Part shown: positions 2,844 to 57,232 of the stretch, one piece after another
Numbering within the stretch: the first letter of the stretch is position 1
How the letters are laid out: every line of letters begins with the position of its first letter
Source: Coriobacteriia bacterium
GTDB taxonomy: Bacteria > Actinomycetota > Coriobacteriia > Anaerosomatales > PALSA-660
Assembly (NCBI GenBank): GCA_025361885.1
Contig: JANYJF010000032.1
Location: 1-57,252 of the forward strand
Direction of reading: 5' to 3'
DNA length: 57,252 bases
Program-made: the position numbers and the translations under genes
Notes under the pieces: model-generated
What the model saw: the letters and a program-made list of their open reading frames with translations, nothing else
What the model was told of the DNA's origin: nothing
Databases searched by the model: none

Positions 2844-3815
2844 CTATCCCACCTCCTTGCCGAAGCGGGAGATGATCCGGATCGTCGCTACGAAGATCAT
2901 CGAGATCACGAACAGGATGATGGCCACTCCGAACAGCGCGGTGCGATGGTCGCCCGCGGCGTACGGCATGTCCATCACGATCACCGTGGTCAGGGTCAGG
3001 AACGGCGCGAAGATGCCGTTTGGGATGACGGGCGCGTTGCCCGCCACCATCACGACCGCCATCGTCTCGCCGATAGCGCGTCCCATGCCGAGGATGATGG
3101 CATCGATGATGCCGATCTTGGCCGCCGGCAGCAGCACGCGCCAGATGGTCTGCCACTTGGTGGCACCCATCGCGTAGCTGGCCTCTCGGATGCCCTCCGG
3201 CACCGAGCGCAGCGCGTCCTCGGAGATCGCCGCGATGGTCGGCAGGATCATGACCGCGAGGATGATCCACACGGTGAACAGTCCGAAGCCCAGCCCGCCC
3301 GAGAACTTCGCGATGATCGGGCGAAGCAGGACCAGACCAAAGAAGCCGTACACGACCGATGGGATGCCCGCAAGCAACTCGACGGCCGGCCGCACCAGGT
3401 CGCGGATCCTGGGGTTCGCAACCTCGGAGAGGAAGACCGCCGTGCCGATCGCCAGTGGCGCGCCCAGTGCAAGGGCACCCAGCGTAGCGAGCATGGAGTT
3501 CACGATGAGGGTCAGGATCCCGAAATCGCCCTTGGTAGGATGCCACACGTACCCACCAAGGAAGTTGAACAGCCCGACCTTCGCGAAGATGGGCCAGCCT
3601 CGCCACCCAACGAACAGGAAGATAAGGGCAACGCCCGCGACCGCGACGCACGCGCATACCAGGAACAGGTTCTGGAGAGCCGCCTCCTTGAAGTACGTGG
3701 CGCGCGAGATGGTCGACAGCCCGCTGCCGGCTGATGGGGCCGCATCCGCGTTCGGACGTCCCGACCCTTCGCTCAATCGGACAGCACGATCATCGGGCTT
3801 CGGGTCCAGAGTCAC
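2844..3815 (-). CDS. pstC: Phosphate ABC transporter permease PstC
   Basis: [27 protein letters not shown]. Confidence 0.95.
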
Positions 3816-3816
3816 G

Positions 3817-4656
3817 TCACTTCCTCCCTTCGGCTACAGGGAGGAACCCCGCGTCACGGACGACCTTGCTCTGGACTGCGGACGACAGCACGAAGTCCAC
3901 GTACTGCTTCGCCAGGCCCGAGGGCTTGCCCTTCGTGAAGAAGTGCAGCACCCGCGAGACCGGGTAGGTGCCGTCCGCGACAGTCTTCTCGGTCGGCTGG
4001 ATGCCGTCGATGGAGACCGCCTTGACCGACTTGTCGACGAAGCCGAGCGAGATGTAGCCCACAGAGGTCGCGCTGTCCGCGACGACGGAGCGGACCTGTC
4101 CGGTACCCGGCAGCACGGCCGACTTCGGATCGAACGGCGCCCCGCCAAGGACGATCTTGGAGAACGCCTCGCGGGTACCGGAAGCCTCGTCGCGGTTCAC
4201 GAGCCAGATGAGCTGATCCGATCCGCCGACGTCCTTCCAGTTGGTGATCTTGCCTTCAAAGATATCGGCGGCCTGCTTCGTGGTGAGGGCTCGGACGGGA
4301 TTGGACGGGTTCACTATGACCGCGATGGCGTCGAAGGCGATGGGCGTGTCGACCAGTCCGAGCGACTTCTCCTCCGGCTTGAGATCGCGCGAGGAGGTAC
4401 CGATGTCGCTGGTTCCCTTGGTGACCGATTCGATGCCCGCGGAGGATCCGACGCCGGCTACGAGCACGCGCAGGTCCGCGTGCTGCTCGTGGAACATCTC
4501 AGCGGCCACTTCCGCGATAGGCAGGATGGTGGTCGATCCGGTGACGGTCAGCTCGGTCTTGGCCGCTCCCGCCCGCGACGAGCAGCCAGAGACGAGCATC
4601 GCGGGAAGCACGACGGCGAGCACCAGGACACGAGCGGCGGAGCGGCGAAGGCTCAT
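3817..4656 (-). CDS. pstS: Phosphate-binding lipoprotein PstS
   Basis: Lipobox LVSGC; GSTTILP, GSSAGI, SSRDLK, RDEASGTREAF. ATG at 4656 overlaps the pgeF stop (ATGA). Confidence 0.93.
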   Translation of the reverse strand: MSLRRSAARVLVLAVVLPAMLVSGCSSRAGAAKTELTVTGSTTILPIAEVAAEMFHEQHADLRVLVAGVGSSAGIESVTKGTSDIGTSSRDLKPEEKSLGLVDTPIAFDAIAVIVNPSNPVRALTTKQAADIFEGKITNWKDVGGSDQLIWLVNRDEASGTREAFSKIVLGGAPFDPKSAVLPGTGQVRSVVADSATSVGYISLGFVDKSVKAVSIDGIQPTEKTVADGTYPVSRVLHFFTKGKPSGLAKQYVDFVLSSAVQSKVVRDAGFLPVAEGRK

Positions 4657-5504
4657 CGGCCCCATCCGAGGACGGCCGCCAAGGCGCCGTGGCGCCCGGT
4701 GACACCTTCGGCTCGGAACGAGAAGTACGAGTCGGTGTTCTCGGCCGTGCAGATGTCGGCCACGAACACGCTATCCCTGGGCAATCCGACCTCGCTAAGT
4801 GTCTGGGACACGACAGCTCCGAGGTCCAACCGGTCCCGGGGCGGTGCAATCGTATCAGCGGCGTTTGGGAATTGCGACACGAATAACGACCGGAGGTCCT
4901 CGCCTACCGGGTAGTGGCATGGTCCGATCCGCGGTCCGACGTAGGCGACCAAGTCCGAGGGCTCGCAGCCCGCGCGGCGTGCGAGGAGTACCGCTGCCGA
5001 GGCGGGCAGCCGGCCCAGCGCACCCTTCCATCCTGCATGGACCACGGCAACGGCTCGGACCGGCCTGATGGCCACGATGATGACCGGCACGCAGTCAGCG
5101 AAGCACAGGAGCAGCGGCGTGTCCGGCTCAGCGGTGATCAACGCATCGGTCTCGGGCAGCGGCGGAGCCTCGCCGAGGCGCGCGAACGCGCCCATGCCGG
5201 CCGATGCGCCCGCGACCTCCCGCGTGCGCAGCCCGTGCACCTGCTCCGCCATCGTGAGGCGGGACCTGAGCGGTTCGATATCGAGTGCCTCCAGCAGCGT
5301 AGAGCGGTTGTCGTCCACGCTGGACGCGTCGTCGCCCACGTGCGACGCAAGGTTCAGCGACGAATAGGGGGCGCTGCTTCGTCCCCCCGTGCGCTGCGTG
5401 AACGCGATCAGAATGCCCCACGACGCGCGCAACTCGGGGTCCATCAGGGCCCTCACGCCCGCGCGCGTGAGGGCCTCGAGGTTCGGAGTGTGCTGAGCGG
5501 GCAT
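4653..5504 (-). CDS. pgeF: PgeF/YfiH/YlmD family (peptidoglycan editing factor / purine nucleoside phosphorylase)
   Basis: SLNLASHVGD, EQVHG, FADCVPV, HAGWKG, YVGPRIGPCHY, FSFR. Start uncertain (5504 or 5531). Confidence 0.92.
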   Translation of the reverse strand: MPAQHTPNLEALTRAGVRALMDPELRASWGILIAFTQRTGGRSSAPYSSLNLASHVGDDASSVDDNRSTLLEALDIEPLRSRLTMAEQVHGLRTREVAGASAGMGAFARLGEAPPLPETDALITAEPDTPLLLCFADCVPVIIVAIRPVRAVAVVHAGWKGALGRLPASAAVLLARRAGCEPSDLVAYVGPRIGPCHYPVGEDLRSLFVSQFPNAADTIAPPRDRLDLGAVVSQTLSEVGLPRDSVFVADICTAENTDSYFSFRAEGVTGRHGALAAVLGWGR

Positions 5505-5654
5505 GGCTGTTCCCGTCGGCCGTCGCGGCATCCGCCCGGATACATCTGGCGCGAACGTGTCGGTTCGGTGACACTTATCGTACAGGGTACGCGCCGCTCG
5601 CGCGGCACCTGTGGGGTAGGAACCATATGGCTGCTGCCGGGAGGGGGTGCATCA

Positions 5655-6206
5655 ATGAAGCGGTCATTGAGGTTTTTCGGTTCGCTCGCCACGTTCGGCA
5701 CGGTCCTCGCGGTCGCGGCTCCGGCGTACGCGGCGGACTACAGCTCATCTGGAAGTGATCCCGCCGCCGGCGGGATCGTGTGCGGCACCTGGTTGTGCAT
5801 AGGCTTCTTCTCGCTGATCGGCCTCGCTCTGTTCATCCTGTGGGTGTGGATGACGATCGATGCCTTCGGGCGCCAGGAGTACGAGTTTCCCAACAGTACG
5901 GGGAACAGCAAGAACACATGGATCATCCTGATGCTCGCGGTGGGGCTTCTGCTCCAGGCCTGGGGCGTCATGGCGCTGATCTACTACTTCATGGTGTTCA
6001 GGAAGATCAAGCGCGGCACGGTCGCTCCGCAGTGGGCGGGCAGCGCCCCCACGGCGCCTCAGGCGCCGACCTACGCGCCGCCCGCACCACCGGTACCGAC
6101 CTACGCGCCGCCCGCACCACCGGTACCGACCTACGCACCGCCCGCACCTCCGGCGCCGCCGGCGCCGCCTGCGCCTCCGACCGATCCTGGTCAGCCGCCC
6201 GCGTAG
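5655..6206 (+). CDS. Hypothetical membrane protein: signal-peptide-like N-terminus, 2-3 TM segments, Pro-rich C-terminal tail
   Basis: ATG at 5655 after a GGAGGGGG RBS. AxA signal cleavage-like site (PAYAA), hydrophobic helices, PTYAPPAPP repeats, followed by a strong hairpin. Confidence 0.8.
   Translation: MKRSLRFFGSLATFGTVLAVAAPAYAADYSSSGSDPAAGGIVCGTWLCIGFFSLIGLALFILWVWMTIDAFGRQEYEFPNSTGNSKNTWIILMLAVGLLLQAWGVMALIYYFMVFRKIKRGTVAPQWAGSAPTAPQAPTYAPPAPPVPTYAPPAPPVPTYAPPAPPAPPAPPAPPTDPGQPPA
6066..6155 (+). repeat. 30-bp tandem repeat, 3 copies (third degenerate), encoding PTYAPPAPPV
   Basis: ccgacctacgcgccgcccgcaccaccggta at 6066 and 6096, with a variant at 6126. Confidence 0.9.
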
Positions 6207-37441: not shown

Positions 37442-38566
37442 TTACCGTGCCTCCCCGTCTGTGCCGCCTGTGTCCGCCGTTGCCGCCGTGCCGTTCTCGC
37501 CGCCTGCGTCCAAGCCCGCCGCAACGTCTGATCCATCATGTGCCCTGCCGAGGCCGTCGAGCCACCGCAGGAGAGGAACCTTCTCTATGGACTCCGAGAA
37601 GCTGATCTTCTCGGAGAGCAGATTCAAGGCGAGGAGGAGGGTGGCCGCCACCGCCAGTCCCCACAAGGGCAGAGTGGCCGCGAGCACGAAGCCTGCCAGG
37701 GCGCCAGCGGCATTCGCGCCGGCGTCGCCGAGCATGCCGCGCTCACCCAGGTCGTAGCGCCACACGGCCACGACCGGGCCGAGCAGGAGGATGACCAAGA
37801 CCACCGCGACGAGGATGGCCTGCGGCGCGGGAGCGACCCCCGAGGGGACTTGCTCCTCCGCGATCGCTGCCGAGCCCAACGCCCCGGGAAGCGCCGCGGC
37901 GACGGCCCCGACGGCCAGCAACGAGTAGCACTTCAGCGCGCGCCCGGGACGCAGGTCCGTGAGGTTGATGAGGTTGGCGGCAAGAGCGATCACGGCCGCG
38001 CCGAGCAGCCACCCGGCCAGCACGACGAACGCCACGGTTCGTGGTTGCGAGATGCCGCCAGCCGCATCGAATGCCCGGCGCAGCGCGGGTTCGACGCAGA
38101 CAGCCAGGGACGCGAGGCCGATCCCGAGCATCTTGAGTCCGCCGGTCGTCAGCCGGCCATGTCGAAGCGCGTCGATGTGCCCGCGGAAACCCTTGGTATC
38201 CGCACCGCCGAAGGCGTCGTCGATCAGCCCGAAGGCGAACGCCGCCGTCACAAGCAGCACCGGGACGAGCCACGCCGCCTCCCGGAGCACATCGGGGTAG
38301 ACCGCCGGCTGCAGCGTTCCGGTCATCGCAAGGACAGAATCCAGCCCGTCCGCGACGACCGTCACCGTCCAGACTCCGACAGCCCACAGCACCCACACCA
38401 GCCCCAGGCCCGGCGTGACCTCACGGCCCCGATAGTTGACGACCCGCATCCGGGACCGCTCCAACGCCGGCATGAGCGCCCGCATCCCGAGAGCCGGGAC
38501 GCCCCATCCGGCGACGAGCGCCAGCCCGACAGACACGATCCCGGCTATCCACATCGGCGTCATCAC
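37442..38566 (-). CDS. MraY/WecA-like (Glycos_transf_4) polytopic membrane protein, divergent paralog
   Basis: [41 protein letters not shown]. These are degenerate versions of the mraY motifs in this window; no HHH motif. Confidence 0.72.
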
Positions 38567-40914
38567 GAGGTGGTGATCTTCCCGGTGCGGAGGGCGCTCG
38601 CATCATCGGCAGGTGCGGGGCCTTCGGCCGCCATGCGCGTCATGATCAGGTACAGGGCTCCCACGCCAACATAGAGGATGATGAGCGCCGGGATGATGAT
38701 CCCGGAATCCTCAGTGAAGTATGCCACCGTGCCGGCAACCAGGCTGGCGGTCAGTCCGGCCGAGTAGCCCGGCCATCGCTCGAGCATCGCCTTGAACTCC
38801 CCGCGCGGCTTCCATCGCAGGTAGATGAGCGTTCCCATGATCCCGACGAGCAGGTATGTCCAGTTGGTGCGGGTCAGCACCCGGAAGTTGGTGTCGGCCT
38901 TCCTCATGATGATCGTCCACAGCGCGCCGACCCCGCCGACGCCGGCGGACTGAAGGGCCTTGCCCAGATGCGTCTCGCGTCCCGGGCTGCCGAGCAGGTC
39001 GATCGCCGACAGCGCCGCGACGAGGAGGACGACGAGCAGCAGCACGACGCCGGCCGTCTTCCAGCTCAGCACCTTGCGGCCGTTGATGAGGGCCCAGAAC
39101 ACCCCATAGCCGACGGTGCCCCAGATCGCCACACCAACGTTGGCCCCGAACATCGGGGCTGCGGAGGTGACCACCATCAGAACGCCGAGCACCGGCACTC
39201 CCCACTTCTTCGCGGCGCCTATCCACGGCTTGTCGCGCAGGATGTCGAGCAGGACACCCGCTCCGATGATGGAGGCGCCGAGGATCAGTGCCGCTGACTC
39301 GTTGCCCATCCCGTAGAAACGTGCCCCGAACAGTGGCGAGTAGGAGAAGAAGCCGGTCTGAGACAGCGGCGCACCCACCCATTGGTCGACGAGCACGACC
39401 GCTGTGGTCCCGAGACCGAACACCGCGATGCGAACTCCCGAGTGATCGTCGCGCGAGACGAGAAGCACGGCAGCCCACAGGAGCAGCGCGACACCTATCA
39501 GCAGCGATGTCACCGCGCCTGCTGTCGGGGGCCATCGCCACACGAGGAATCCGACCGTGCTCGCCACCGGGACAGCAAGTGTCAGGAGCAGCAGCGACCG
39601 AAGGATCCTGCCCCAGCGACCTGTCACGCCGCCCACGCCTCCTACGACGAGGAACGTGCACAACACCAAGATGCCGACGACCAGGCTGATATAGGCATTG
39701 ACCACGGAGAAGCGCACGACCTCGACCGCGACCGACGTGCGGTTGTACTCGTCGAGGGTGGCGACACGGTCCTCAAGCGTCGCCCCGGCCGATGTCGAGC
39801 CGATGACGGCGCCCGGCATCGAGGACGGCGCCTTGGCGCCCAACGCGGCGAGTGTCGTCGCACCGATGTCCATGAACGTCACGATCCCCGGCCGGTGCGT
39901 CGATGAGGCGGTGGCCACGCCTCCCGACAGACCGGGGCCCTTCAGAACAGCCGGCACCAGCCCGGGGGGCTCGCCCTCCACTTCTGGAGCCGCGAGGCTG
40001 ACCACCATGATCGTGTCCTGAGGCCCGAGGGCGGCGGCAACACGGGAAACCACCTTGTCGAGCTCGCGCAGAGCGGTCGCGTGCTGGGCGGCGACGACCT
40101 GTGTCGACGCGTCCGAGGCCGAAGCCGCGACGCGAGACAGATCACCCGGATCGATGACAGCGAAGATGGCGCCGCTGGATGACGCACGGGTGGCGGATGA
40201 CATGGCCTTCGTGTAGGCGGAGAGCAACTTGGCGACGTCGGTGCGGACACCGAAAGGTCGGGTGGGGTCGGTATCGAGCGTGCGGGCGGAGACGTCACCG
40301 AACATGGTGCGGCCAGCCGCGTCCATCGCGATCATGCCGGCCGGGCGGACCCGCATGATGTCACTCAGCGACAGGCCGGGATCCGAGTTGCCGGCGCCCA
40401 CCGTGGCGCCACCGGCGTCGCGGACCGCCTGGCCGAGCGTTCCGACAGCCCCCGGCGTCGACAGATCGCGGTTTGCGAACCTCTGCCGCGGCACGCCGAG
40501 GAAGACGACCTGGTCGCCTGACGGGGACGCACCCGACAGCCGCGAGAACTCGGTGGCAGCGAGCCCGCCCTCGGTGTACTCGTCCGACGAGTAGGCCTCG
40601 AGCGATGTCGGATCGATGGTGACTCCCGCGCCTGCGGAGAGCAGCAGCGCCCCCTTGACGATCGCCGAGGTGCCGACGCCGACGGAGCCGCTTCGCAGGT
40701 TCACATTGGCCAGCGTGCCGGAGCGGGCCAGGCCGCGGATCGACGGTACGGGGCCTTTGGTGATGTCGTTCCACGTCATATACGGGGCGACGATGACCAC
40801 GACGGCGCGCGGACCCGTCGGGGCGGTGGCCCCTGCAGCCGCCGAGGAGGTGAGCGGAAGGCTCAGTCCCACGAGGCAGACCATCGCGATCATCGCAGCC
40901 AGGCGTCGCTTCAT
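38563..40914 (-). CDS. Large uncharacterised membrane protein: signal peptide, extracytoplasmic alpha/beta domain (possibly alkaline-phosphatase-like fold), about 10-12 C-terminal TM helices
   Basis: ATG at 40914 (MKRRLAAMIA...). Motifs SSTHRPGIVTFMDIGAT, GARFYGMGNE, GANVG, THLG, EDSG. Its stop overlaps the next ATG. Confidence 0.8.
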   Translation of the reverse strand: MKRRLAAMIAMVCLVGLSLPLTSSAAAGATAPTGPRAVVVIVAPYMTWNDITKGPVPSIRGLARSGTLANVNLRSGSVGVGTSAIVKGALLLSAGAGVTIDPTSLEAYSSDEYTEGGLAATEFSRLSGASPSGDQVVFLGVPRQRFANRDLSTPGAVGTLGQAVRDAGGATVGAGNSDPGLSLSDIMRVRPAGMIAMDAAGRTMFGDVSARTLDTDPTRPFGVRTDVAKLLSAYTKAMSSATRASSSGAIFAVIDPGDLSRVAASASDASTQVVAAQHATALRELDKVVSRVAAALGPQDTIMVVSLAAPEVEGEPPGLVPAVLKGPGLSGGVATASSTHRPGIVTFMDIGATTLAALGAKAPSSMPGAVIGSTSAGATLEDRVATLDEYNRTSVAVEVVRFSVVNAYISLVVGILVLCTFLVVGGVGGVTGRWGRILRSLLLLTLAVPVASTVGFLVWRWPPTAGAVTSLLIGVALLLWAAVLLVSRDDHSGVRIAVFGLGTTAVVLVDQWVGAPLSQTGFFSYSPLFGARFYGMGNESAALILGASIIGAGVLLDILRDKPWIGAAKKWGVPVLGVLMVVTSAAPMFGANVGVAIWGTVGYGVFWALINGRKVLSWKTAGVVLLLVVLLVAALSAIDLLGSPGRETHLGKALQSAGVGGVGALWTIIMRKADTNFRVLTRTNWTYLLVGIMGTLIYLRWKPRGEFKAMLERWPGYSAGLTASLVAGTVAYFTEDSGIIIPALIILYVGVGALYLIMTRMAAEGPAPADDASALRTGKITTS

Positions 40915-41052
40915 GCTCTCACTCCAAACGGCGCACCCGGGCGTGCGGACACATGGTCCGGCCCGGGCGATGGGCCAAGCGTGCGGGGGCTGGTGACGGA
41001 TCGGGCGACATGGTGCCTGTGCGCGCCCGGGCAGCAGAGGTGCCCGACCAGA

Positions 41053-41116
41053 AGTATACCGGAATATGTCGCGACGACGCGGAAGTTCCTGTGGGTGTGT
41101 TGCCGTCCGGTAGAAT
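41053..41116. promoter_or_regulatory. Divergent -10 elements: TATACT (minus, 41053-41058) and TAGAAT (plus, 41111-41116)
   Basis: Both match TAnnnT and sit between divergently transcribed genes. No clear -35. Confidence 0.5.
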
Positions 41117-41158
41117 GGCGGCGAAGCATACCGCGACCGCATCCACCCGGAGGCACCC

Positions 41159-42787
41159 ATCGCCGCTCCGTCGATAGCACGCTCGACCGCGACCATGTCG
41201 GTCTCGACGCTCGTCTCCCGCATGACCGGCTTCGTGCGGACGTGGGCGATGGCCGTCGCGCTGGGCGTCACCATGACGTCCACAGGCGCGATACCGGTCG
41301 CCTCTTCGTTCAACATCTCCAACAACATCCCGAACATGATCTACGAGCTGCTGGCTGGCGGGGTCCTGTCCGCCATGCTCATCCCGATCTTCATGGAGCG
41401 ACTCGAGAAGGATGGCCAGGAGGGCGCGTTCCACTTCATCCGATCGCTGTTCAATCTCGCCTTCGTGGTGCTGGGCCTGGTCGCGCTCATCGGGACGTTC
41501 CTCCCATACCCGTTCGTCCGCACCCAGACGTTCACGGTCAAGCCCGAGGAGGTCCAGCTCGCGGTCTACTTCTTCCGCTTCTTCGCCGTACAGATCGTGT
41601 TTTACGGGATGATGGCGATCACCACGGGCGTGCTCAACTCGTACCGGCACTTCTTCGCGCCGGCGATCGCTCCGGTGCTCAACAACGTCGTGGTCATCGT
41701 CGCGCTGCTAGGTGTCTACATCCCGATGCGCGCCTCGCACCCCATGTGGGCCGTCACCGCGCTCGCGGTTGCGACCACGCTGGGCGTCGTGGCGCTCCTC
41801 GTGGTGCAGCTGCCGGTGCTCTTCAAGCTCGGATTCCGGTTCAAGCTCGGGATCGACTGGAAGGACCCGTCTCTGCGCAAGCTGGGCATCAAGATGCTCC
41901 CGATCCTGCTGTACGTGGCGACGAACCTCGTGGGCGTGTCGTTCCGCAACGCCTACGCCACCTCTGCGTTCCGCGATGGCTCGGCGACGCTGTCATACGC
42001 CTGGATGTGGTACCAGTTGCCGTACGGCGTCTTCGCCGTGGCGCTCATCACCGCGCTCGTGCCCGAGCTGTCCGAGATGGCGGCGAAGAAGGACTGGACC
42101 TCGTTCAAGACGACCTTCTCCACAGGATTGCGCGCGCTCGGCGTCCTGGTCCTGCCGATGGCCGCGATGCTCATCGCTTTGGCGGGGCCGCTCGTGACCC
42201 TGTACCGCGCCGGCAATTTCCCGCAGGCCGCCGTGCCGCTCGTCTCCAGCGTCCTGATGGCGTGGACTCTGGGCCTGTTCTCGTTCTGCGCGTTCATGTT
42301 CGTGCTGCGCACGTTCAACACGATGCAGGACAGCCGGACGCCGGCGATCGTCAACGTGTTCGTCACGGTCCTGCAGGTCGCGCTGTACGCAGGACTGACG
42401 AGCATGACGGCATGGGGCAACTTCCGCCTCGTCGGCATCCCGGCCGCGGACGCGATCGCCTACACGCTCAACGTCGCGATCCTTCTGATCATCCTGCGCC
42501 GCCGCATCGGCGCGTTCGACGGCCGTCGCATCGTCGGGACGCTCGGCGTCGTGCTGGGAGCCTCGCTGCTCGGTGGCGGCGCCGCGTGGGGAGCCTCGCG
42601 TCTGGCCGGCCTCGCGCTGCACGCCGGCCGCTTCGCCTTCCTCGGGCAGATCGCCGCCGGTGGCGTCGCCGGGCTCGTGGTCGCCTACGGCCTGCTCCTC
42701 GTGCTGAAGGTGCCCGAGATGGGGATCGCGGCTTCCATGGCCAAGCGGGTGGTCGGTCGCGCACTGCCGAAGAGGGCCGCATCCTGA
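41159..42787 (+). CDS. murJ: MurJ/MviN family (MOP) flippase; start probably ATC at 41159 (first ATG at 41195)
   Basis: SRMTGFVR, NNIPNMIYELLAGGVLSAMLIP, GVLNS..FFAPAIAPVLNN, YQLPYGVF, QDSRTP. Confidence 0.9.
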   Translation: MAAPSIARSTATMSVSTLVSRMTGFVRTWAMAVALGVTMTSTGAIPVASSFNISNNIPNMIYELLAGGVLSAMLIPIFMERLEKDGQEGAFHFIRSLFNLAFVVLGLVALIGTFLPYPFVRTQTFTVKPEEVQLAVYFFRFFAVQIVFYGMMAITTGVLNSYRHFFAPAIAPVLNNVVVIVALLGVYIPMRASHPMWAVTALAVATTLGVVALLVVQLPVLFKLGFRFKLGIDWKDPSLRKLGIKMLPILLYVATNLVGVSFRNAYATSAFRDGSATLSYAWMWYQLPYGVFAVALITALVPELSEMAAKKDWTSFKTTFSTGLRALGVLVLPMAAMLIALAGPLVTLYRAGNFPQAAVPLVSSVLMAWTLGLFSFCAFMFVLRTFNTMQDSRTPAIVNVFVTVLQVALYAGLTSMTAWGNFRLVGIPAADAIAYTLNVAILLIILRRRIGAFDGRRIVGTLGVVLGASLLGGGAAWGASRLAGLALHAGRFAFLGQIAAGGVAGLVVAYGLLLVLKVPEMGIAASMAKRVVGRALPKRAAS

Positions 42788-43467
42788 ACGCCGTCGCGAT
42801 CATCCCCGCGCACGACGAGTCCGAACGCATCGAGGCGACGGTGAAGGCCGCTCTCGCGATCCCCCGCGTCGTGCGGGTCCTGGTGGTCGACGACGCCTCG
42901 TCGGACGACACCGCCGAGCGCGCGAGCGCCGCCGGCGCCGACGTCCTGCGCCTCGAGCGCAACGTCGGAAAGGGCGCCGCGCTCCAGGCGGGGCTCGAGC
43001 GTACGCGCCGGGGCAGGGACGCGGTCCTTCTGCTCGACGGCGACCTCGCCGAGACGGCTTCGCAGGGCGCTCTCCTGCTCGGGCCGGTGCTGGCCGGTGG
43101 GGCCGACATGACCATCGCGCGCTTCCCGAAGCCGGCGAACAAGGCGGGGTTCGGGCTGGTGATGCGCCTGGCCAGGTGGGGCATCCGGCGCTACGGCCGC
43201 GCGGACTTCCTGGCCACCGCTCCCCTGTCGGGGCAGAGGGCGCTCAGCCCCCACGCTGTGGACGCGGTCATGCCCTTCGCATCCGGTTATGGCGTAGAGG
43301 TCGCGATGACGTCGCACGCCCTGCGCGCCGGGCTGCGCGTCCTCGAGGTCGACACGACGATGGCGCACGCCGCCACGGGCCGGGACATCGCCGGATTCGT
43401 CCACCGTGGAAGGCAGTTCGCGGACGTGGCCTCGGCGCTGCTCGCCCTGCGGCGCGAGCTGCGCTGA
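42784..43467 (+). CDS. Glycosyltransferase family 2 (GT-A fold); probable CTG start overlapping the murJ stop
   Basis: VAIIPAHDE, VVDDASSDDT, NVGKGAAL, LLLDGD (DxD), APLSGQRA, GYGVEVAMT, HRGRQF. Confidence 0.88.
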   Translation: MNAVAIIPAHDESERIEATVKAALAIPRVVRVLVVDDASSDDTAERASAAGADVLRLERNVGKGAALQAGLERTRRGRDAVLLLDGDLAETASQGALLLGPVLAGGADMTIARFPKPANKAGFGLVMRLARWGIRRYGRADFLATAPLSGQRALSPHAVDAVMPFASGYGVEVAMTSHALRAGLRVLEVDTTMAHAATGRDIAGFVHRGRQFADVASALLALRRELR

Positions 43468-43513
43468 GGGCGCTGGGCGAGAGCCACGACCGACCGGGAC
43501 CGCCGTCCGATCG

Positions 43514-50944: not shown

Positions 50945-51319
50945 TCAGCTCCGCTCGTCGTCCTCCTGAGGCTCGTCGACGACGCCACCGCGCAACTCGT
51001 ACTCCTCGATCGTGACCTCTTCGATGATGCCGCCGTCCGGCAGCTCCTCGATCGTGACCGTCTCGACGACGATCGCGTCGCCCGCATCCGGCCCGGAGTC
51101 CTCCCCCTCGCGGGACCCCTCGCCCTCGGCGGCGGCGGCCTCGAGTGTGGACCGCCACTGCTTGGCGTCGATCAGCTCGGTGCACTGGTTGGCCAGGCGC
51201 ACGCCCTCTTCGAGCAGGTCGAGGCTCTTCTCAAGGCTCGTGTCCTTCTTGCGGACCTCGGTCGCGATCTGCTCGAGCCTCACGCGGGCGGAATCGAACG
51301 TGTACACGTCGTCGCTCAT
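50945..51319 (-). CDS. xseB: Exodeoxyribonuclease VII small subunit with acidic C-terminal extension
   Basis: TFDSARVRLEQIATEV...SLEKSLDLLEEGVRLANQC. Lies between nusB and dxs. Confidence 0.8.
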   Translation of the reverse strand: MSDDVYTFDSARVRLEQIATEVRKKDTSLEKSLDLLEEGVRLANQCTELIDAKQWRSTLEAAAAEGEGSREGEDSGPDAGDAIVVETVTIEELPDGGIIEEVTIEEYELRGGVVDEPQEDDERS

Positions 51320-51747
51320 GCTGATTCTCCGTGGGTGGCTGCCTCGCGGGTGCGCTCCTCGGACAATCTACCGAGGATGCCGTTCACGAACTTGGACGAG
51401 TCGTCGGTGCCGTAGATCTTCGCCATCTCGACCGCCTCATTGATCGAGACCGAGTCGGGGATGTCGTCTTGGAACATGAGCTCGTAGACGGCGATCCGCA
51501 GGATGTTGCGGTCCACGAGCGGCATGCGGGACAGTGTCCAGTTCTCGGAGATCGACTCGATGGTCGCGTCGATGATGGTCTGATGCGATTCGACCCCCAT
51601 CAGCAGTTCGCGGCAGAACTCTGTCGGCTCGCCGTCCTCGCCGCTGAACGTGCCTGTGGCCAAGATGCCCGACAGGGTCTCGTCGGTGATCTCACGCTGG
51701 TAGAGGATGTGAAGCGCCTGATGGCGCGCGCGGCGTCTCTCGAGCAT
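51316..51747 (-). CDS. nusB: Transcription antitermination factor NusB
   Basis: RRRARHQALHILYQ, WTLSRMPLVDRNILR, INEAVEMAK, FVNGILG. Confidence 0.97.
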   Translation of the reverse strand: MLERRRARHQALHILYQREITDETLSGILATGTFSGEDGEPTEFCRELLMGVESHQTIIDATIESISENWTLSRMPLVDRNILRIAVYELMFQDDIPDSVSINEAVEMAKIYGTDDSSKFVNGILGRLSEERTREAATHGESA

Positions 51748-51786
51748 GGTGGTGGTGTCGCTGCTTCCTGTTGGTCGCGTGGTGCG

Positions 51787-52149
51787 CTATGCGGGAAAGG
51801 TGATCCCGTCGATGAACACGTCGACGGTATCGGCCTTGGTGCCGGTCTGGCTGACGAGCGCCTCGTAGACAGCCGTCTGGACGGACTCCGCGATGTGTCG
51901 GAGCGGCTGGCCGTACTCGACCGACACATGCACGCTCACGGCCAGTAGACCCGCCTCATCGACGCACAGCTCCACGCCCTTGGCGCCCTGCTTGGACATC
52001 AGGCCTGCGAGGCCCGGGGTGGTGACAGCGGCGACGCCTTCTACGGACTCCGTCGCCAGCACGACGATGGTCTCGAGCACTCCGGGGGCCAGGTCGACTC
52101 CCTCGAGGCGCAACTCGCTGCACGCGGTGTTCTCTCTAGTCTTCGCCAT
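51787..52149 (-). CDS. Asp23/Gls24 family protein (YqhY-like)
   Basis: LAPGVLETIV..ATESVEGV, VSVEYG, VQTAV, VDVFIDGI. Lies between accC and nusB as yqhY does. Confidence 0.85.
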   Translation of the reverse strand: MAKTRENTACSELRLEGVDLAPGVLETIVVLATESVEGVAAVTTPGLAGLMSKQGAKGVELCVDEAGLLAVSVHVSVEYGQPLRHIAESVQTAVYEALVSQTGTKADTVDVFIDGITFPA

Positions 52150-53512
52150 GACCGTCCTCGTTGCCGAAGATGTGCGTGTCGACGAAGTCAGTATAGACCT
52201 CGCCGCGCTGGAAGTATTCGTTCTCGACGACCCGCTGGTGGAACGGGATCGTCGTCGGGATACCCACGATGATGAACTCGTCGAGCGCGCGCCGGGCACG
52301 GTTGATCGCCTCGTAGCGCGTCTCACCCCACACGATGAGCTTTCCGAGCAAAGAGTCGTACGTCGGCGGCACATGGTAGCCGGAGTACAGGTGGCTGTCG
52401 ACGCGAACGCCCAATCCACCGGGTGCGTTGAAGATCTCGACCTTGCCGGGATGCGGTCGGAAGTCGTGCTCCGTATCCTCGGCGTTTATGCGGAACTCGA
52501 TCGCGTGGCCGCGGATCTCGATGTCGGACTGGTCGGGGTGGCGCATCGGCCTGCCTGCGGCGATGCGGATCTGCTCCTTGATGATGTCCACGCCCGTGAC
52601 GGCCTCGGTCACAGGGTGCTCGACCTGCACCCGGGTGTTCATCTCCATGAAGTAGAACGTGCCGTCGGTGTCGAGGAGGAACTCGACGGTGCCGGCATTG
52701 ACGTAGTCTACCGCCCGGACGGCCTTGAGGGCCGCCTCGCCCATCTCCGCCCGCAACTGCGGCGTCAGAGCTGGTGACGGGGACTCCTCGATGAGCTTCT
52801 GGTGGCGCCGCTGCACCGAGCAATCGCGCTCGAACAGATGGATCGCGTTGCCGTGGCTGTCCGCGAGGACTTGGAACTCGATGTGGCGCGGACGAAGGAG
52901 GTACTTCTCGATGTAGACCGTATCGTTGCCGAAAGCGACGGCCGCCTCGGCCTTGGCGGCGTGAAGGTTGCTCACCAAGTCGCCCGGACCTGTCGCGACA
53001 CGCATGCCGCGCCCGCCGCCGCCAGCCGACGCCTTGATCAGAACCGGATAACCGACCTGCTCCGCGAAGGCGAGAGCCTCCTGTTCGGAGGTCACCGCTC
53101 CGTCGGAACCCGGGACGGTGGGCACGCCTGCGGCCATCATGGTGGAGCGCGCCACGGCCTTGTCACCCATGCGTTCGATGGCATCCGGGCTCGGTCCGAT
53201 GAAGGTGATGCCACTGTCGGCGCACGCGCGCGCGAACCCCGCGTTCTCCGCGAGGAACCCGTAGCCCGGATGGATCGCCTGACAGCCCGTCACCAGGGCG
53301 GCGGACACGATGTTCGGCATGTTGAGGTAACTGAGCGCGGACGGCGCGGGACCGATGCACACCGCGCGGTCCGCCATGCGCGCGTGCAGACAGTCACGAT
53401 CGATCTCCGAGTACACGGCGACCGTTTCGATGTCCATCTCACGGCACGCGCGGATGACCCGCAGCGCGATCTCGCCCCGGTTGGCGATAAGGATGCGGTC
53501 GAACTCGCGCAC
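52136..53512 (-). CDS. accC: Biotin carboxylase
   Basis: ILIANRGEIA, HPGYGFLAEN, KASAGGGGRGM, ERDCSVQRRHQK, FMEMNTRVQVEH, YDSLLGK. Confidence 0.97.
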   Translation of the reverse strand: MREFDRILIANRGEIALRVIRACREMDIETVAVYSEIDRDCLHARMADRAVCIGPAPSALSYLNMPNIVSAALVTGCQAIHPGYGFLAENAGFARACADSGITFIGPSPDAIERMGDKAVARSTMMAAGVPTVPGSDGAVTSEQEALAFAEQVGYPVLIKASAGGGGRGMRVATGPGDLVSNLHAAKAEAAVAFGNDTVYIEKYLLRPRHIEFQVLADSHGNAIHLFERDCSVQRRHQKLIEESPSPALTPQLRAEMGEAALKAVRAVDYVNAGTVEFLLDTDGTFYFMEMNTRVQVEHPVTEAVTGVDIIKEQIRIAAGRPMRHPDQSDIEIRGHAIEFRINAEDTEHDFRPHPGKVEIFNAPGGLGVRVDSHLYSGYHVPPTYDSLLGKLIVWGETRYEAINRARRALDEFIIVGIPTTIPFHQRVVENEYFQRGEVYTDFVDTHIFGNEDGHGED

Positions 53513-53515
53513 GCC

Positions 53516-55351
53516 CTACCCCACCGGCTCGTAGTAGAAGAGCACCGCTCCGTAGTCGACCGCCGACGCGTCCTCGGCGACGACCTCGCGGATGACTCCG
53601 GCCTCCGGCGCGTCGATCTCGTTCATCAGCTTCATGGCCTCGAGGATGCACAGCGTCGCGCCTTCTTCGAAGGTGTCGCCGACTTTGACGAACGCCTCGG
53701 AGCCGGGCGAAGACGAGCGGTAGAACGTGCCGACCATCTGCGCTTTGATCTCACGCCACGACGCAGGACGCCCGGACGTGTCCTCGACGGAGACAGCCGA
53801 AGCCGAGACAGGAGCGGACGGATGCGCCGGCGTCTGGACGCTCACGCCACCCTTGCGCACCACGATCTTCGAGCCGTTCTCCTCGACACTGACCTCGGAC
53901 ACGTCGGATGTCTCGACCATCTTGATGAGCTCGCGGATCTGATTGACGTCCACGGATTCGTCCTCCCTGACTGCATTGATCTCTTCGCTCATGAGGAAGA
54001 CCGCCGCTTCGGCGCCCTTCTGGTGCTTGCTCAAGTAGGTGCGGGCCTCGTTGGGGAAGAGCGCGTACATCAGCACATCTTCCTCGCTGTGGGCGAGGTC
54101 TCCGATCTCTGCTTCGACCTCGTCGTACGTCGTGGTGACGAGAGACCCCGGCCGGACATCCTCGGCCAGTGGCTGCTCGTTCCCGAGCACCTTGGCGACT
54201 ATCTCCAGGTCCATCGGTCCCGGCGCTTTGCCGTAGAAGCCCCGGATGTAGTCCTTCATCTCGTTGGGCACGACGCTCCACCGCTTGCCGGTCAGCACGT
54301 TGAGCACGGCCTGCGTGCCCACGATCTGCGACATCGGCGTCACGAGCGGCGGGTAGCCCACCTCCGCGCGGACCTTCGCGATCTCGGCCAGCACGTCCGG
54401 CATCCGGTCCCCGGCCTTCTGGACGTCGAGCTGGCTGATGAGGTTGCTCATCATGCCGCCCGGCACCTGGTGCGAGAAGACCTCCATCTGCAGCATCGTG
54501 GTGATGCCGCGCTTGAGATGCTTGCTCTCGCGCACTGCCTCCCAGTAGTGGGCGATGCGGAACAGCTCGTCGAGGTCGAGACCGGTGTCGTACGGCGACT
54601 CCTTGAGCGCCGCCACGATCATCTCGACGGGCGGCTGGCTGTTGCCGAAGGCGAGCGCCACGGCCGCCGTGTCGACGATGTCGGCACCGGCCTCGATGGC
54701 CTTCAGGTAGTTCATCGGGGCCATGCCGCCGATGTAGTGGCAATGCACGTGGACCGGGAGGCCGATCTCCTCTTTGAGGGCGCGGACCATCTTCTCGGTC
54801 CGGAACGGCGTGAGCATCCCCGCCATGTCCTTGATGCAGATGGTGTCGGAGCCCAGATCCTTGAGCCTGTGCGCGTACTCAAGATAGCTGTCGAGCGTGT
54901 GGACCGGGCTCACGGTGTAGGAGATGGCACCTTCGAAGTGGCCGCCGCACTCCTTGATCGCCGACGCGCTCACCTCGAGGTTGCGGATGTCGTTGAGCGC
55001 GTCGAAGACACGGAAGACGTCGATGCCGTTGCGCTTGGAGGCGTGGACGAACCTGCGGCAGATGTCGTCGGAGTAGTGGTGGTAGCCGACCAGGTTCTGG
55101 CCGCGGAGCAACATCTGCAGGGGAGTCTTCGGGCAGTGGTGCTTGATCGTGCGAAGGCGCTCCCAGGGGTTCTCGTCGAGGAATCGCAGCGCCGCGTCGA
55201 ACGTTGCCCCGCCCCATACCTCCAGCGACCAGTACCCCACGGCGTCCATCGCCGGCAGGATCGGGAGCATGTCGGCGATCTGCATGCGCGTGGCCCAGAG
55301 CGACTGGTGTGCGTCGCGAAGGGTGGTATCTGTGATCGCTACGGGTCGCAT
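53516..55351 (-). CDS. Pyruvate carboxylase subunit B / oxaloacetate decarboxylase alpha-type carboxyltransferase fused to an AccB-type biotin carboxyl carrier
   Basis: DTTLRDAHQSL, EVWGGATFD, MLLRGQN, IKDMAG, HVHCH, HQVPGGMMSNL; C-terminal MVGTFYR...LEAMKLMNEI biotinyl domain. Confidence 0.92.
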   Translation of the reverse strand: MRPVAITDTTLRDAHQSLWATRMQIADMLPILPAMDAVGYWSLEVWGGATFDAALRFLDENPWERLRTIKHHCPKTPLQMLLRGQNLVGYHHYSDDICRRFVHASKRNGIDVFRVFDALNDIRNLEVSASAIKECGGHFEGAISYTVSPVHTLDSYLEYAHRLKDLGSDTICIKDMAGMLTPFRTEKMVRALKEEIGLPVHVHCHYIGGMAPMNYLKAIEAGADIVDTAAVALAFGNSQPPVEMIVAALKESPYDTGLDLDELFRIAHYWEAVRESKHLKRGITTMLQMEVFSHQVPGGMMSNLISQLDVQKAGDRMPDVLAEIAKVRAEVGYPPLVTPMSQIVGTQAVLNVLTGKRWSVVPNEMKDYIRGFYGKAPGPMDLEIVAKVLGNEQPLAEDVRPGSLVTTTYDEVEAEIGDLAHSEEDVLMYALFPNEARTYLSKHQKGAEAAVFLMSEEINAVREDESVDVNQIRELIKMVETSDVSEVSVEENGSKIVVRKGGVSVQTPAHPSAPVSASAVSVEDTSGRPASWREIKAQMVGTFYRSSSPGSEAFVKVGDTFEEGATLCILEAMKLMNEIDAPEAGVIREVVAEDASAVDYGAVLFYYEPVG

Positions 55352-55436
55352 GGCCTGGCACCTGACGTGAAGGATTCGGACTGTCCGGTCATGTGGCCAC
55401 CTTTGGGCGCCGACTCGGCCCGCCGGTGGAACGTCC

Positions 55437-55442
55437 AGTATA
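55437..55442 (-). promoter_or_regulatory. Putative -10 element TATACT upstream of the carboxyltransferase-BCCP gene
   Basis: agtata at 55437-55442 in the efp-carboxylase gap. Confidence 0.4.
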
Positions 55443-55528
55443 GCCGACGACACCCTTGGCGCGCGCCCCTCGCGAGAGGTGCGGCCGCCGGATGCCGCTT
55501 CGAGCAGCGTTGCTGGCGTGACGAAGCG

Positions 55529-56089
55529 CTAGACGCGCGTGATGTAGCTTCCGTCCCGAGTGTCGACTTTGATGTGCTCGCCCGAGTTGACGAACATCGG
55601 GACCATCACCACGGCGCCGGTCTCCAGCGTCGCGGGCTTGCTCCCGCCCTGCACAGTGTCGCCCTTGAATCCCGGCTCGGTCTCGACCACTTCGAGCTCC
55701 ACGAACATCGGAGCCTCGACACCGATCATCTCATCACCGGCGACGAGCACGGTCGCGGTGTCGTTGTCCTTGAGCCACTTCCCCGCCTCGCCGACGAAAT
55801 CGCGAGCCAGGTCGAACTGATCGTACGTGTCGGTGTCCATGAAGTGGAACGCGTCACCGTCGTTGTAGAGGTACTGGAGGTTCTTGGTCTCCATCCGCAC
55901 GTCATCGAGCTTCTCGCCGGCGCGGAAGGTCACGTCCACCACGCGGCCACTCTTGACCTCCTTGAGCTTGGTGCGGACGAACGCGCCGCCCTTGCCCGGC
56001 TTGACGTGCTGGAACTCCACGACGACCCACAGCTTGTCGTTGTAGGAGATGCACATGCCGTTCTTGAGGTTGTTGGTGGAGACGGGCAT
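55529..56089 (-). CDS. efp: Elongation factor P
   Basis: FQHVKPGKGGAFVRTKLK, PGFKGDT, KPATLETG, VDTRDGSY. Confidence 0.98.
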   Translation of the reverse strand: MPVSTNNLKNGMCISYNDKLWVVVEFQHVKPGKGGAFVRTKLKEVKSGRVVDVTFRAGEKLDDVRMETKNLQYLYNDGDAFHFMDTDTYDQFDLARDFVGEAGKWLKDNDTATVLVAGDEMIGVEAPMFVELEVVETEPGFKGDTVQGGSKPATLETGAVVMVPMFVNSGEHIKVDTRDGSYITRV

Positions 56090-56143
56090 ACCTTCAACGT
56101 CCTTCCATGCAGCGCGAGGCCGTCGGGCGCCGCGGCGGGTGTC

Positions 56144-57232
56144 CTACAACTCGATGAGGCCCTTGGGGGAGTGGGACAGGAGCCTGCACCCACCCTCTTC
56201 GACCACCACAAGGTCCTCGATTCTAACACCTCCGAAGCCGGGCACGTACACGCCCGGTTCGATGGTGATGACGCTGCCGGAGCGAACCGAGTCGCGACTG
56301 TTGACCCCCACACGCGGCAGTTCATGGATGTTGAGACCCACGCCATGCCCGAGTCCGTGGCCGAACTGCTCGCCGAAGCCACGCGCCCGCAGCAGGTCCC
56401 GCGCCGCGGCGTCGATCGCCTCGCCCGGCATCCCCGGCTTGACGGCGGCCAGCCCGGCCATGTTCGCGTCCAGCACGGCCGAGTACAGCTCGCGCTGGCG
56501 CTCGTCGGCGAGGCCGACGACCACGGTCCGCGTCATATCCGAACAGTACCCGCCGATGCGGGCCCCGAAGTCCATGGTCAGCAGCTCTCCGGTCCCGATT
56601 ACCCTGTCGGTCACCCCGGCGTGCGGCTTCGATGAGTTGGGACCGCTCGCGACGATGGAGTCGAACCCCAGCCCCTCGGAACCGCCGCGGCGCATGAACG
56701 ACTCGAGCTCGAGCGCGACGTCCACCTCGCGCATGCCGGGTCGGATGATCCCGAGCACGTGGTCGAAGGCCTGGTCCGCGAGTGCGGCCGCGCGCCCGAT
56801 CGCATCGACCTCGACCGGCTCCTTGACCTGCCGCAGCTCTTCGACCAGCTGTTCGAAGGCGGCCACGCGACCCTGGAACTTCTCAGAGATGAACCGGAAC
56901 CTGCCGTACGGCATCGAGGACTCGATGCCGAGCGCCTCGACGCCCTTCGCCCTCAACTCGTCGCACACCGTGACGTAGAGGTTCTCGCGCACGATGTGGA
57001 CCGACCACGGTGTTCCCTCGGCGGCCGCCTCGGTGACCTCCTTGTAGCGGAAATCCGTGTAGTAGCGCGCTGCCGCGGCCGTGATGAGACACAGACCGGC
57101 GCCGCTTCCGTCGATGACGCCCTCGAATCCGGTGAGGTAGCGCTGGTTGGCGTCCGAGGTCACGAGGAACGCGTCGATGGCCTCGTCCACGAGCCGAAGC
57201 CGGAGTGCCGCGAGACGATGTTCGGCGTTCAT
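56144..57232 (-). CDS. Xaa-Pro peptidase (M24B, PepQ/YqhT-like)
   Basis: DFRY, DFGARIGGYCSDMTRT, HGLGHGVGLNIHE, TIEPGVY, GGVRIED. Directly upstream of efp. Confidence 0.93.
   Translation of the reverse strand: MNAEHRLAALRLRLVDEAIDAFLVTSDANQRYLTGFEGVIDGSGAGLCLITAAAARYYTDFRYKEVTEAAAEGTPWSVHIVRENLYVTVCDELRAKGVEALGIESSMPYGRFRFISEKFQGRVAAFEQLVEELRQVKEPVEVDAIGRAAALADQAFDHVLGIIRPGMREVDVALELESFMRRGGSEGLGFDSIVASGPNSSKPHAGVTDRVIGTGELLTMDFGARIGGYCSDMTRTVVVGLADERQRELYSAVLDANMAGLAAVKPGMPGEAIDAAARDLLRARGFGEQFGHGLGHGVGLNIHELPRVGVNSRDSVRSGSVITIEPGVYVPGFGGVRIEDLVVVEEGGCRLLSHSPKGLIEL

Follow-up and report, generated by a model that had tools for sequence, protein, structure and literature searches.

The results of this study suggest that a single gene of a Coriobacteriia genome gives two proteins in one reading frame. 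The DNA analysed is the 57,252-nt contig JANYJF010000032.1 of assembly GCA_025361885.1, the whole of which is referred to below as the window. An open reading frame (ORF) on its minus strand, at positions 53516-55351 with the stop codon included, encodes a 611-aa protein in which a pyruvate-type carboxyltransferase (CT; HMGL-like and PYC_OADA) is joined by a short linker to a complete AccB, the biotin carboxyl carrier protein (BCCP) of acetyl-CoA carboxylase (ACC). We consider it probable that the locus is a housekeeping accB-accC operon in which a CT has been fused to the complete accB, and that a conserved internal start within the fusion gene gives free AccB in addition to the fusion protein. 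A functional internal start giving a stand-alone AccB had been proposed in a preliminary description of this DNA, and the proposal appears well supported by the comparative sequence evidence presented here.

At the internal site, the minus strand reads GTC AGG GAG GAC GAA TCC GTG GAC GTC AAT CAG ATC. It contains a Shine-Dalgarno (SD)-like sequence, AGGGAGG (53962-53968, minus strand), which is formed by the codons AGG (Arg) and GAG (Glu) and the first base of GAC, and, after a spacing of 8 nt, the codon GTG (53951-53953, minus strand), both being in frame with the long ORF 53516-55453. This GTG encodes Val467 of the 611-aa protein and is the equivalent of AccB Met1. The nested ORF beginning there (53516-53953, minus strand; 145 aa and the stop) is proposed to encode free AccB consisting of an N-terminal helix and β-hairpin, an Ala/Pro/Ser-rich linker and a biotinyl domain. 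The SD, the GTG, the coordinates and the sequence given in the preliminary description were all reproduced when the minus strand was read. The same type of SD occurs at genuine starts in the window, for example as GGGAGGA located 7 nt before the GTG of the gene at 2844-3815.

The Pfam domains of the fusion protein are PF00682, PF02436 and PF00364, that is, a CT followed by a biotinyl domain. The long protein scored 787.9 bits against the NCBIfam model NF006761 for pyruvate carboxylase (PC) subunit B (cutoff 402). Against the equivalog model TIGR01108 for the oxaloacetate decarboxylase alpha subunit (OadA), its score of 673.8 bits was under the cutoff of 756.5, and no decarboxylase beta or gamma subunit family (oadB/oadG) was found in a Pfam scan of the window genes. 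The identity as an alpha subunit of a Na+-pumping oxaloacetate decarboxylase was rejected on these two grounds. Homologues of the fusion are variously annotated as "acetyl-CoA carboxylase biotin carboxyl carrier protein" or "oxaloacetate decarboxylase alpha subunit". The start of the full-length protein is most likely the ATG at 55351 (611 aa) and not the GTG at 55453 of the mechanical gene call (645 aa), as judged from 120 listed homologues of 606-647 aa and the consensus of their alignment; the common N-terminus MRP(V/x)ITDTTLRDAHQS opens all 120 of them. A weak AGGTG lies upstream of this ATG in the window, and strong SDs are present at the corresponding start in three related loci (L007, L008 and L009).

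The 145-aa C-terminal part matched the BCCP model TIGR00531 with 128.6 bits (cutoff 115.2) over model positions 1-154 of 156. Residue 1 of the short product aligned with Met1 of E. coli BCCP (PDB 4HR7; residue 21 of chain 4hr7_B, after the tag), and residues 1-138 aligned with residues 21-172 of that chain, N-terminal module, linker and biotinyl domain all being covered. Since the match covers the whole model and begins at Met1, the carrier is a complete AccB and not a bare biotinyl domain of ca. 70 aa. The earlier assignment of the 145-aa product from the GTG as AccB-like thus agrees with the full-length TIGR00531 match and the E. coli BCCP alignment. The motif EAMKLMNEI aligned with the biotinylation motif of E. 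coli BCCP, and the codon of its biotinyl-lysine, AAG, is at 53630-53632 on the minus strand; this lysine is Lys108 in the short form and Lys574 in the long form. Here, accB has no separate ORF and is the 3' part of the 611-codon gene.

The window and seven related loci (L001, L002, L003, L007, L008, L009 and L012), all of which carry accC downstream, were compared at the DNA level. The codon aligned to AccB Met1 is GTG in five of the eight loci and ATG in the other three, and no other Val codon occurs at this position. The fifth to third codons upstream of it are AGG, AGA, GAG, AAG or ATG, then GAG, and then GAC, GAA or GAT, so that an SD core of the form xxG GAG GA stands 8 nt upstream of the start in 8/8 loci; at identical spacing, the core is GGAGGA in seven loci and GAGAGGA in L001. 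In the codon alignment of the eight genes, none of the 11 other columns with invariant Val is all GTG, and none of the 14 other columns with invariant Glu is all GAG, whereas the Glu codon within the SD is GAG in 8/8. At the first SD position, Arg is encoded by AGR in 4/4 cases and Lys by AAG in 2/2. In these genes, GTG makes up 24-47% of the Val codons, GAG 42-87% of the Glu codons, AGR 0-43% of the Arg codons and AAG 44-73% of the Lys codons. When all 684 alignment columns were scanned blindly, a start codon with an SD-like motif was present in 8/8 loci at the internal site only, the runner-up column reaching 5/8. In a scan of synonymous conservation, which used 7-codon windows and expectations specific to each pair and residue, the REDESV segment came first among 616 (z = 5.9). 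Between pairs of loci, synonymous codon identity was only 0.26-0.61, near saturation even within lineages. Synonymous-site conservation of the SD and GTG/ATG in orthologues, which the preliminary description had itself suggested as a check, is therefore clearly positive in all eight loci.

These patterns might reflect constraint on the protein only, in which case an acidic x-E-[DE] linker and a hydrophobic Val or Met capping the N-terminal helix of AccB would be conserved and the nucleotide pattern would be a by-product. Consistent with this, Glu463, Val467 and Asp468 are invariant across 41 aligned proteins, Val occupies the internal-start position in 120/120 listed close homologues, and codons for Glu and Asp are inherently GA-rich. 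However, constraint on the protein leaves unexplained the synonymous choices, namely GTG in 5/5 Val codons, GAG in 8/8 Glu codons, AGR in 4/4 Arg codons and AAG in 2/2 Lys codons, as well as the fact that Val alternates only with Met. In an AlphaFold2 model of the fusion, which is a poor one (mean pLDDT 65), a helix was predicted at residues 469-481 and strands at 486-491 and 494-499. Residues 446-467 have a pLDDT below 50; the residues encoded by the SD are inside this segment, which ends at Val467, so that those said to be constrained belong to a low-confidence linker. Besides, E or Q is found at the same position in fusions that lack accC (described below), although the domain is still kept there. 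We regard an explanation by protein constraint only as quite improbable, and a functional internal start accounts better for the synonymous choices.

At the protein level, the three positions that encode the SD vary only among R/K/E/T, E/G and D/E/G/A in the listed close homologues, with mostly purine-rich codons. The search was extended to representatives of 50%-identity clusters, of which 150 were listed, and 49 spanning the junction were aligned. Val or Met followed by Asp or Asn was found at the site in 28 of these 49. In a further 14, the position held S, T, P, A, E, G, D or I (12 representatives), a gap (one) or a garbled sequence (one), and these 14 typically have a diverged N-terminus of the type RAERIRELV. 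Among free AccBs of 140-160 aa, residue 1 or 2 of many aligned to query position 68/69, which is the Val in question. AccB-sized database proteins of this clade start with VDVNQ or MDVNQ, and two proteins on fragmentary contigs (P0288 and P0301) begin exactly at the internal site with VDVNQ, which indicates that, if the upstream part is absent, gene finders take this site for a start. Four other proteins (P0286, P0298, P0302 and P0303) are 146-150 aa long and begin with MDV.QI; these may represent accB genes that are truly unfused, in related lineages.

The same three-domain architecture was found in all 120 listed protein clusters, which share 76-99% identity and come from independent assemblies. 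In addition, genome contigs were searched with generic CT peptides, and 80 listed loci were examined. Among these 80 listed loci, an AccB-type C-terminus fused to a CT was present in Coriobacteriia (L001, L002, L007 and L008), in Candidatus Aquicultor (L003), in two metagenome-assembled genomes (MAGs) of Clostridia (L009 and L012), in three MAGs of Thermoleophilia/Actinomycetota (L004-L006) and in one MAG of Fibrobacteres (L041). At least 12 of the 80 were counted as having such a C-terminus, 7 with accC downstream and 5 without. The fusion is kept in loci down to 49% identity (Coriobacteriia, Aquicultor and Clostridia, 49-78%), at which synonymous sites are saturated. These distributions indicate that the fusion is old and widespread, and that it is neither an artefact nor a recent relic. 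In L009 (3953-5923) and L012 (3710-5944), the CT is joined to AccB by a linker that is longer (ca. 50 aa) and poorly conserved, and the signal xGGAGGAyGGA...ATG is intact in both; the fusion in Clostridia may have arisen independently at this locus. The accC match in L003 (2478-3792) is broken, query residues 1-247 being in one frame and 283-452 in another, owing to a frameshift in this MAG or an error in its assembly.

The spread of the fusion bears on two further explanations. One is that a CT gene and accB were joined in the assembly through an indel or because a stop codon was missed. The preliminary description had allowed for two ordinary genes separated by a missed stop codon; the same continuous ORF in the 120 listed clusters and in seven independent genome loci speaks against this, and an assembly or sequencing artefact is hardly credible. 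The other is that the site is a non-functional relic, the SD and start of a former accB having been carried into the linker on loss of a stop codon and being now neither used nor selected. The linker does resemble a converted gene end followed by an intergenic spacer, the CT proteins that stand alone in other loci stop ca. 15-20 residues past the ALFP motif, and linker conservation is poor in L009 and L012. Similar motif pairs also arise by chance at about one per 2,000 codons in the window, where 11 internal in-frame ATG, GTG or TTG codons with GGAGG 5-10 nt upstream were counted per 14,523 codons (37 gene calls); 3 of these 11, at codons 11-18, are probably true starts of mis-called genes. 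On the other hand, a relic of this age would not be expected to keep GTG/ATG and GAG in all eight loci against none of the control columns, or to rank first in the synonymous scan. The relic of a recent fusion, which the preliminary description had given as its alternative, is disfavoured by the 120 listed clusters and the loci down to 49% identity, and an old, unselected relic is likewise unlikely.

Decay of the internal start can be seen directly in fusions without accC. CT-AccB fusions of this type were found at L004:3989-5827, L005:3713-5836, L006 (ca. 4001-5830) and L041:3944-5944. None of the four has accC within 4 kb. They sit in an efp...nusB-dxs context like that of the window, from which both accC and asp23 are absent, as seen in the L004 order efp-fusion-nusB-ispA-dxs-tlyA. 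Where the other loci have the start equivalent to AccB Met1, these four carry GAG, CAG or AAT, encoding E, Q or N. The internal start is thus present in 8/8 loci with an adjacent accC and in 0/4 without it, the latter four loci representing two lineages only. Since these fusions have no start codon at the site, decay of the start does occur, which adds to the case against a relic that merely persists. The biotin carboxylase (BC) partner of the accC-less fusions must be encoded elsewhere.

Predicted mRNA folding from -30 to +30 around the internal start was weaker than the gene mean in 8/8 loci (percentiles by locus of 0.07, 0.05, 0.46, 0.19, 0.15, 0.01, 0.30 and 0.18), and the local G+C content was lower in 7/8. 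These values bear on the possibility that the internal SD is an element for elongation pausing or ribosome retention without productive initiation, which would provide time for folding of the CT or coupling to accC. The SD core is the best-conserved part of the site and stands at a domain boundary, as such an element might. However, GTG or ATG is kept in 8/8, whereas an element for pausing would not require a start codon 8 nt downstream of it; mRNA structure around the site is reduced, as it is at true starts; and whether SDs really induce pausing in ribosome profiling has been disputed. We consider a pausing function very unlikely.

Several observations weigh against a functional internal start and temper our confidence in it. 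Within the window alone, the pair of SD and start codon is not beyond chance; the excess over chance comes from the exact placement on the codon equivalent to AccB Met1 and from conservation, and not from the motif pair itself. The DNA comparison covers 8 loci only, which represent ca. 4 independent lineages, and constraint on the protein could be partly behind the Glu and the Asp or Glu at the SD positions and the Val or Met at the start. The mRNA-structure signal is modest, with one locus at a percentile of 0.46. Among the 49 listed junction-spanning representatives, 7 have Leu at the site, which is uninterpretable from the protein alone. In L004-L006, there is an in-frame ATG ca. 11 codons downstream of the AccB Met1 position, with a weak AAGGA or AGGGA 10 nt upstream, and this ATG could be an alternative internal start, which would weaken the contrast between loci with and without accC. 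Finally, accA and accD were not found in the 57-kb window or in the ±4-kb flanks of the relatives.

The surroundings of the fusion gene point to an accBC locus. Downstream, accC (52136-53512, minus strand) encodes an ACC-type BC of 458 aa and starts with GTG 3 nt past the TAG stop of the fusion gene; its product scored 725.3 bits against TIGR00514 (cutoff 626.5). It is followed by an asp23/yqhY-like gene of ca. 120 aa (51787-52149, minus strand; Pfam Asp23 and start analysis) and by nusB (51316-51747, minus strand; Pfam NusB). Upstream is efp (55529-56089, minus strand; Pfam EF-P domains), separated from the fusion gene by a gap of 177 nt. The order in Coriobacteriia is pepP-efp-fusion-accC-asp23-nusB-xseB-dxs, and that in Clostridia (L009 and L012) is spoIIIA genes-fusion-accC-asp23-x-nusB-folD; we take the neighbourhood spoIIIA...accC-asp23...nusB-folD to be that of accBC in Bacillus subtilis. 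Judging from these flanking genes, the fusion locus is the canonical accBC locus, and the gene order accB-accC-asp23(yqhY)-nusB to which the preliminary description had appealed is present in both the Coriobacteriia and the Clostridia loci. A second accB was not found within the 57-kb window. An internal promoter for a separate accB-accC transcript was also considered and was rejected because no sigma-70-like site was seen in the fusion gene by a consensus scan, which gave 1 site in 51200-56200 (inside accC) against 0.7 expected and which says little for a high-GC actinobacterium.

On the basis of these results, the expression of the locus can be envisaged as described below. Since the ORF is continuous, ribosomes starting at ATG 55351 must make the 611-aa CT-AccB. 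Ribosomes would also load at the internal SD and initiate at the GTG at 53953, giving a free AccB of 145 aa that is the C-terminus of the fusion except for N-formylmethionine replacing Val. Both proteoforms would be biotinylated on the EAMK lysine (Lys574 and Lys108, respectively) and would dock to the ACC-type AccC via the N-terminal helix and hairpin of AccB, in the manner of BCCP and BC in the E. coli complex. On the long form, carboxybiotin would pass to the protein's own CT domain for the conversion of pyruvate to oxaloacetate or a related 2-oxoacid carboxylation, which would make this form the CT and BCCP subunit of a split carboxylase acting on pyruvate (or a related 2-oxoacid). The free AccB would carry carboxybiotin to the AccA/AccD carboxyltransferase, if this is encoded elsewhere in the genome. 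Internal initiation may also feed ribosomes into the tightly coupled accC. The internal start most plausibly goes back to the start that accB had when it was still a separate gene.

More tentatively, we infer that free AccB has a role in ACC and that one BC is shared. It is conceivable that one BC and one carrier sequence serve two carboxylases, the long form acting in anaplerosis and the short form in ACC and lipid synthesis, in which case the ratio of the two starts would partition carboxybiotin between oxaloacetate and malonyl-CoA. The enzyme formed by the long form would then represent a third architecture of split PC, with docking through the N-terminal module of AccB and not through a BT or PT domain. 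If the internal start is used, the current annotation misses an essential-pathway protein across a whole clade, and the gene would be a clear and evolutionarily traceable addition to the few bacterial genes for which two functional products from one frame are known. It would also be a dual-product gene born of a gene fusion that kept the translation signals of the downstream gene. A split PC built on an ACC-type BC and the AccB docking module would differ from the BT-domain enzyme solved in 2016, and start choice might offer a simple translational means of sharing one BC between anaplerosis and fatty-acid synthesis.

Some other features of the window were noted. The listed asp23 ORF of 210 aa (51787-52419) overlaps accC, and its Pfam match is confined to residues 107-206; the likely start is the ATG at 52149 (120 aa), which has GAGGA upstream and gives a 14-nt overlap with the stop region of accC. 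This overlap suggests translational coupling of accC and asp23. The remaining genes are housekeeping ones, including pst/phoU, the dcw cluster, pyrG, recN, nadK, dxs and xseB. Between pyrG and steA/mctB-like genes, two adjacent minus-strand ORFs (37442-38566 and 38563-41337; 374 and 924 aa) have a coding-like GC3 and no Pfam family at E ≤ 1e-5, and 41338-43513 received no gene call under a simple filter. On the plus strand, an open frame of 1277 aa (52802-56635) lies opposite accC, the fusion gene and efp; it is the usual antisense artefact of high-GC DNA and not a gene. Across the whole window, Rfam gave 0 matches at the gathering score.

No prior description of a nested AccB start or of the CT-AccB architecture was found in the literature covered, which left out subscription journals and supplements. 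Among known enzymes, the bacterial two-subunit PC is one of the closest. This enzyme, an α2β4 assembly of PycA and PycB in Methylobacillus and Pseudomonas, has a BT-like four-stranded sheet with an HGE motif in the linker of the β subunit, and its α subunit of ca. 471 aa ends in an Ala-rich hydrophobic helix that separates PycA from the BC of ACC (Choi et al. 2016, PMC5059739). As in that enzyme, the CT and BCCP of the window are on one polypeptide with a separate BC, and the CT belongs to the same fold families. Unlike it, the linker in the window has neither the BT-like sheet nor the HGE motif and is followed by the AccB N-terminal module instead, and the gene order is CT-BCCP and then BC, as opposed to pycA and then pycB. 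The loci of Pseudomonas type that were retrieved do have the HGE motif (...DVHGESY...), and the Ala-rich helix is present at the end of PycA in L028-L036. The AccC of the window has an acidic tail without an Ala-rich C-terminal helix, and its relatives of 450-470 aa likewise lack the helix. The predicted system would thus work like a split PC, yet it lies outside the two-subunit PC family as defined, since it has neither the BT-like linker nor the Ala-rich helix of the α subunit.

AccB and AccC of E. coli are a textbook pair. Like AccB in that pair (PDB 4HR7), the short product aligns over its full length from Met1, and accC is directly downstream; unlike E. coli accB, the accB of the window has no ORF of its own, and binding of its N-terminal module to AccC is predicted from the likeness. 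In the E. coli BC-BCCP complex, two BC dimers are clamped by four BCCPs, and BC1 of Chloroflexus aurantiacus is a BC-BCCP fusion in a heteromeric ACC (PMC11077971). The fusion in the window resembles BC1 in being a partial fusion of ACC components with the N-terminal β-hairpin of BCCP retained. It differs in that the BCCP is on a non-ACC, pyruvate-type CT, whereas in BC1 it is on the BC, for which the accessible text of that source describes no internal start.

In-frame internal initiation is a known kind of event (reviews PMC13515050 and PMC11005335), and depletion of SD sequences within coding regions has been reported (PMC5100845). In E. coli arcB, the carrier domain ArcB-C is released by initiation at a GUG that follows an SD-like sequence at a domain boundary; Ribo-RET and Western blot established this product, and the internal site is conserved between species (Meydan et al., bioRxiv 10.1101/520783). 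The gene described here resembles arcB in that the SD and GUG stand exactly at the boundary of a C-terminal carrier domain, of which a diffusible copy would be made in addition to the one in the full-length protein. The arcB product is a phosphotransfer domain shown by experiment, whereas that of the window is a biotin carrier predicted from sequence. By this analogy, the internal GUG of arcB may be regarded as the closest mechanistic precedent for a fusion gene that also yields free AccB.

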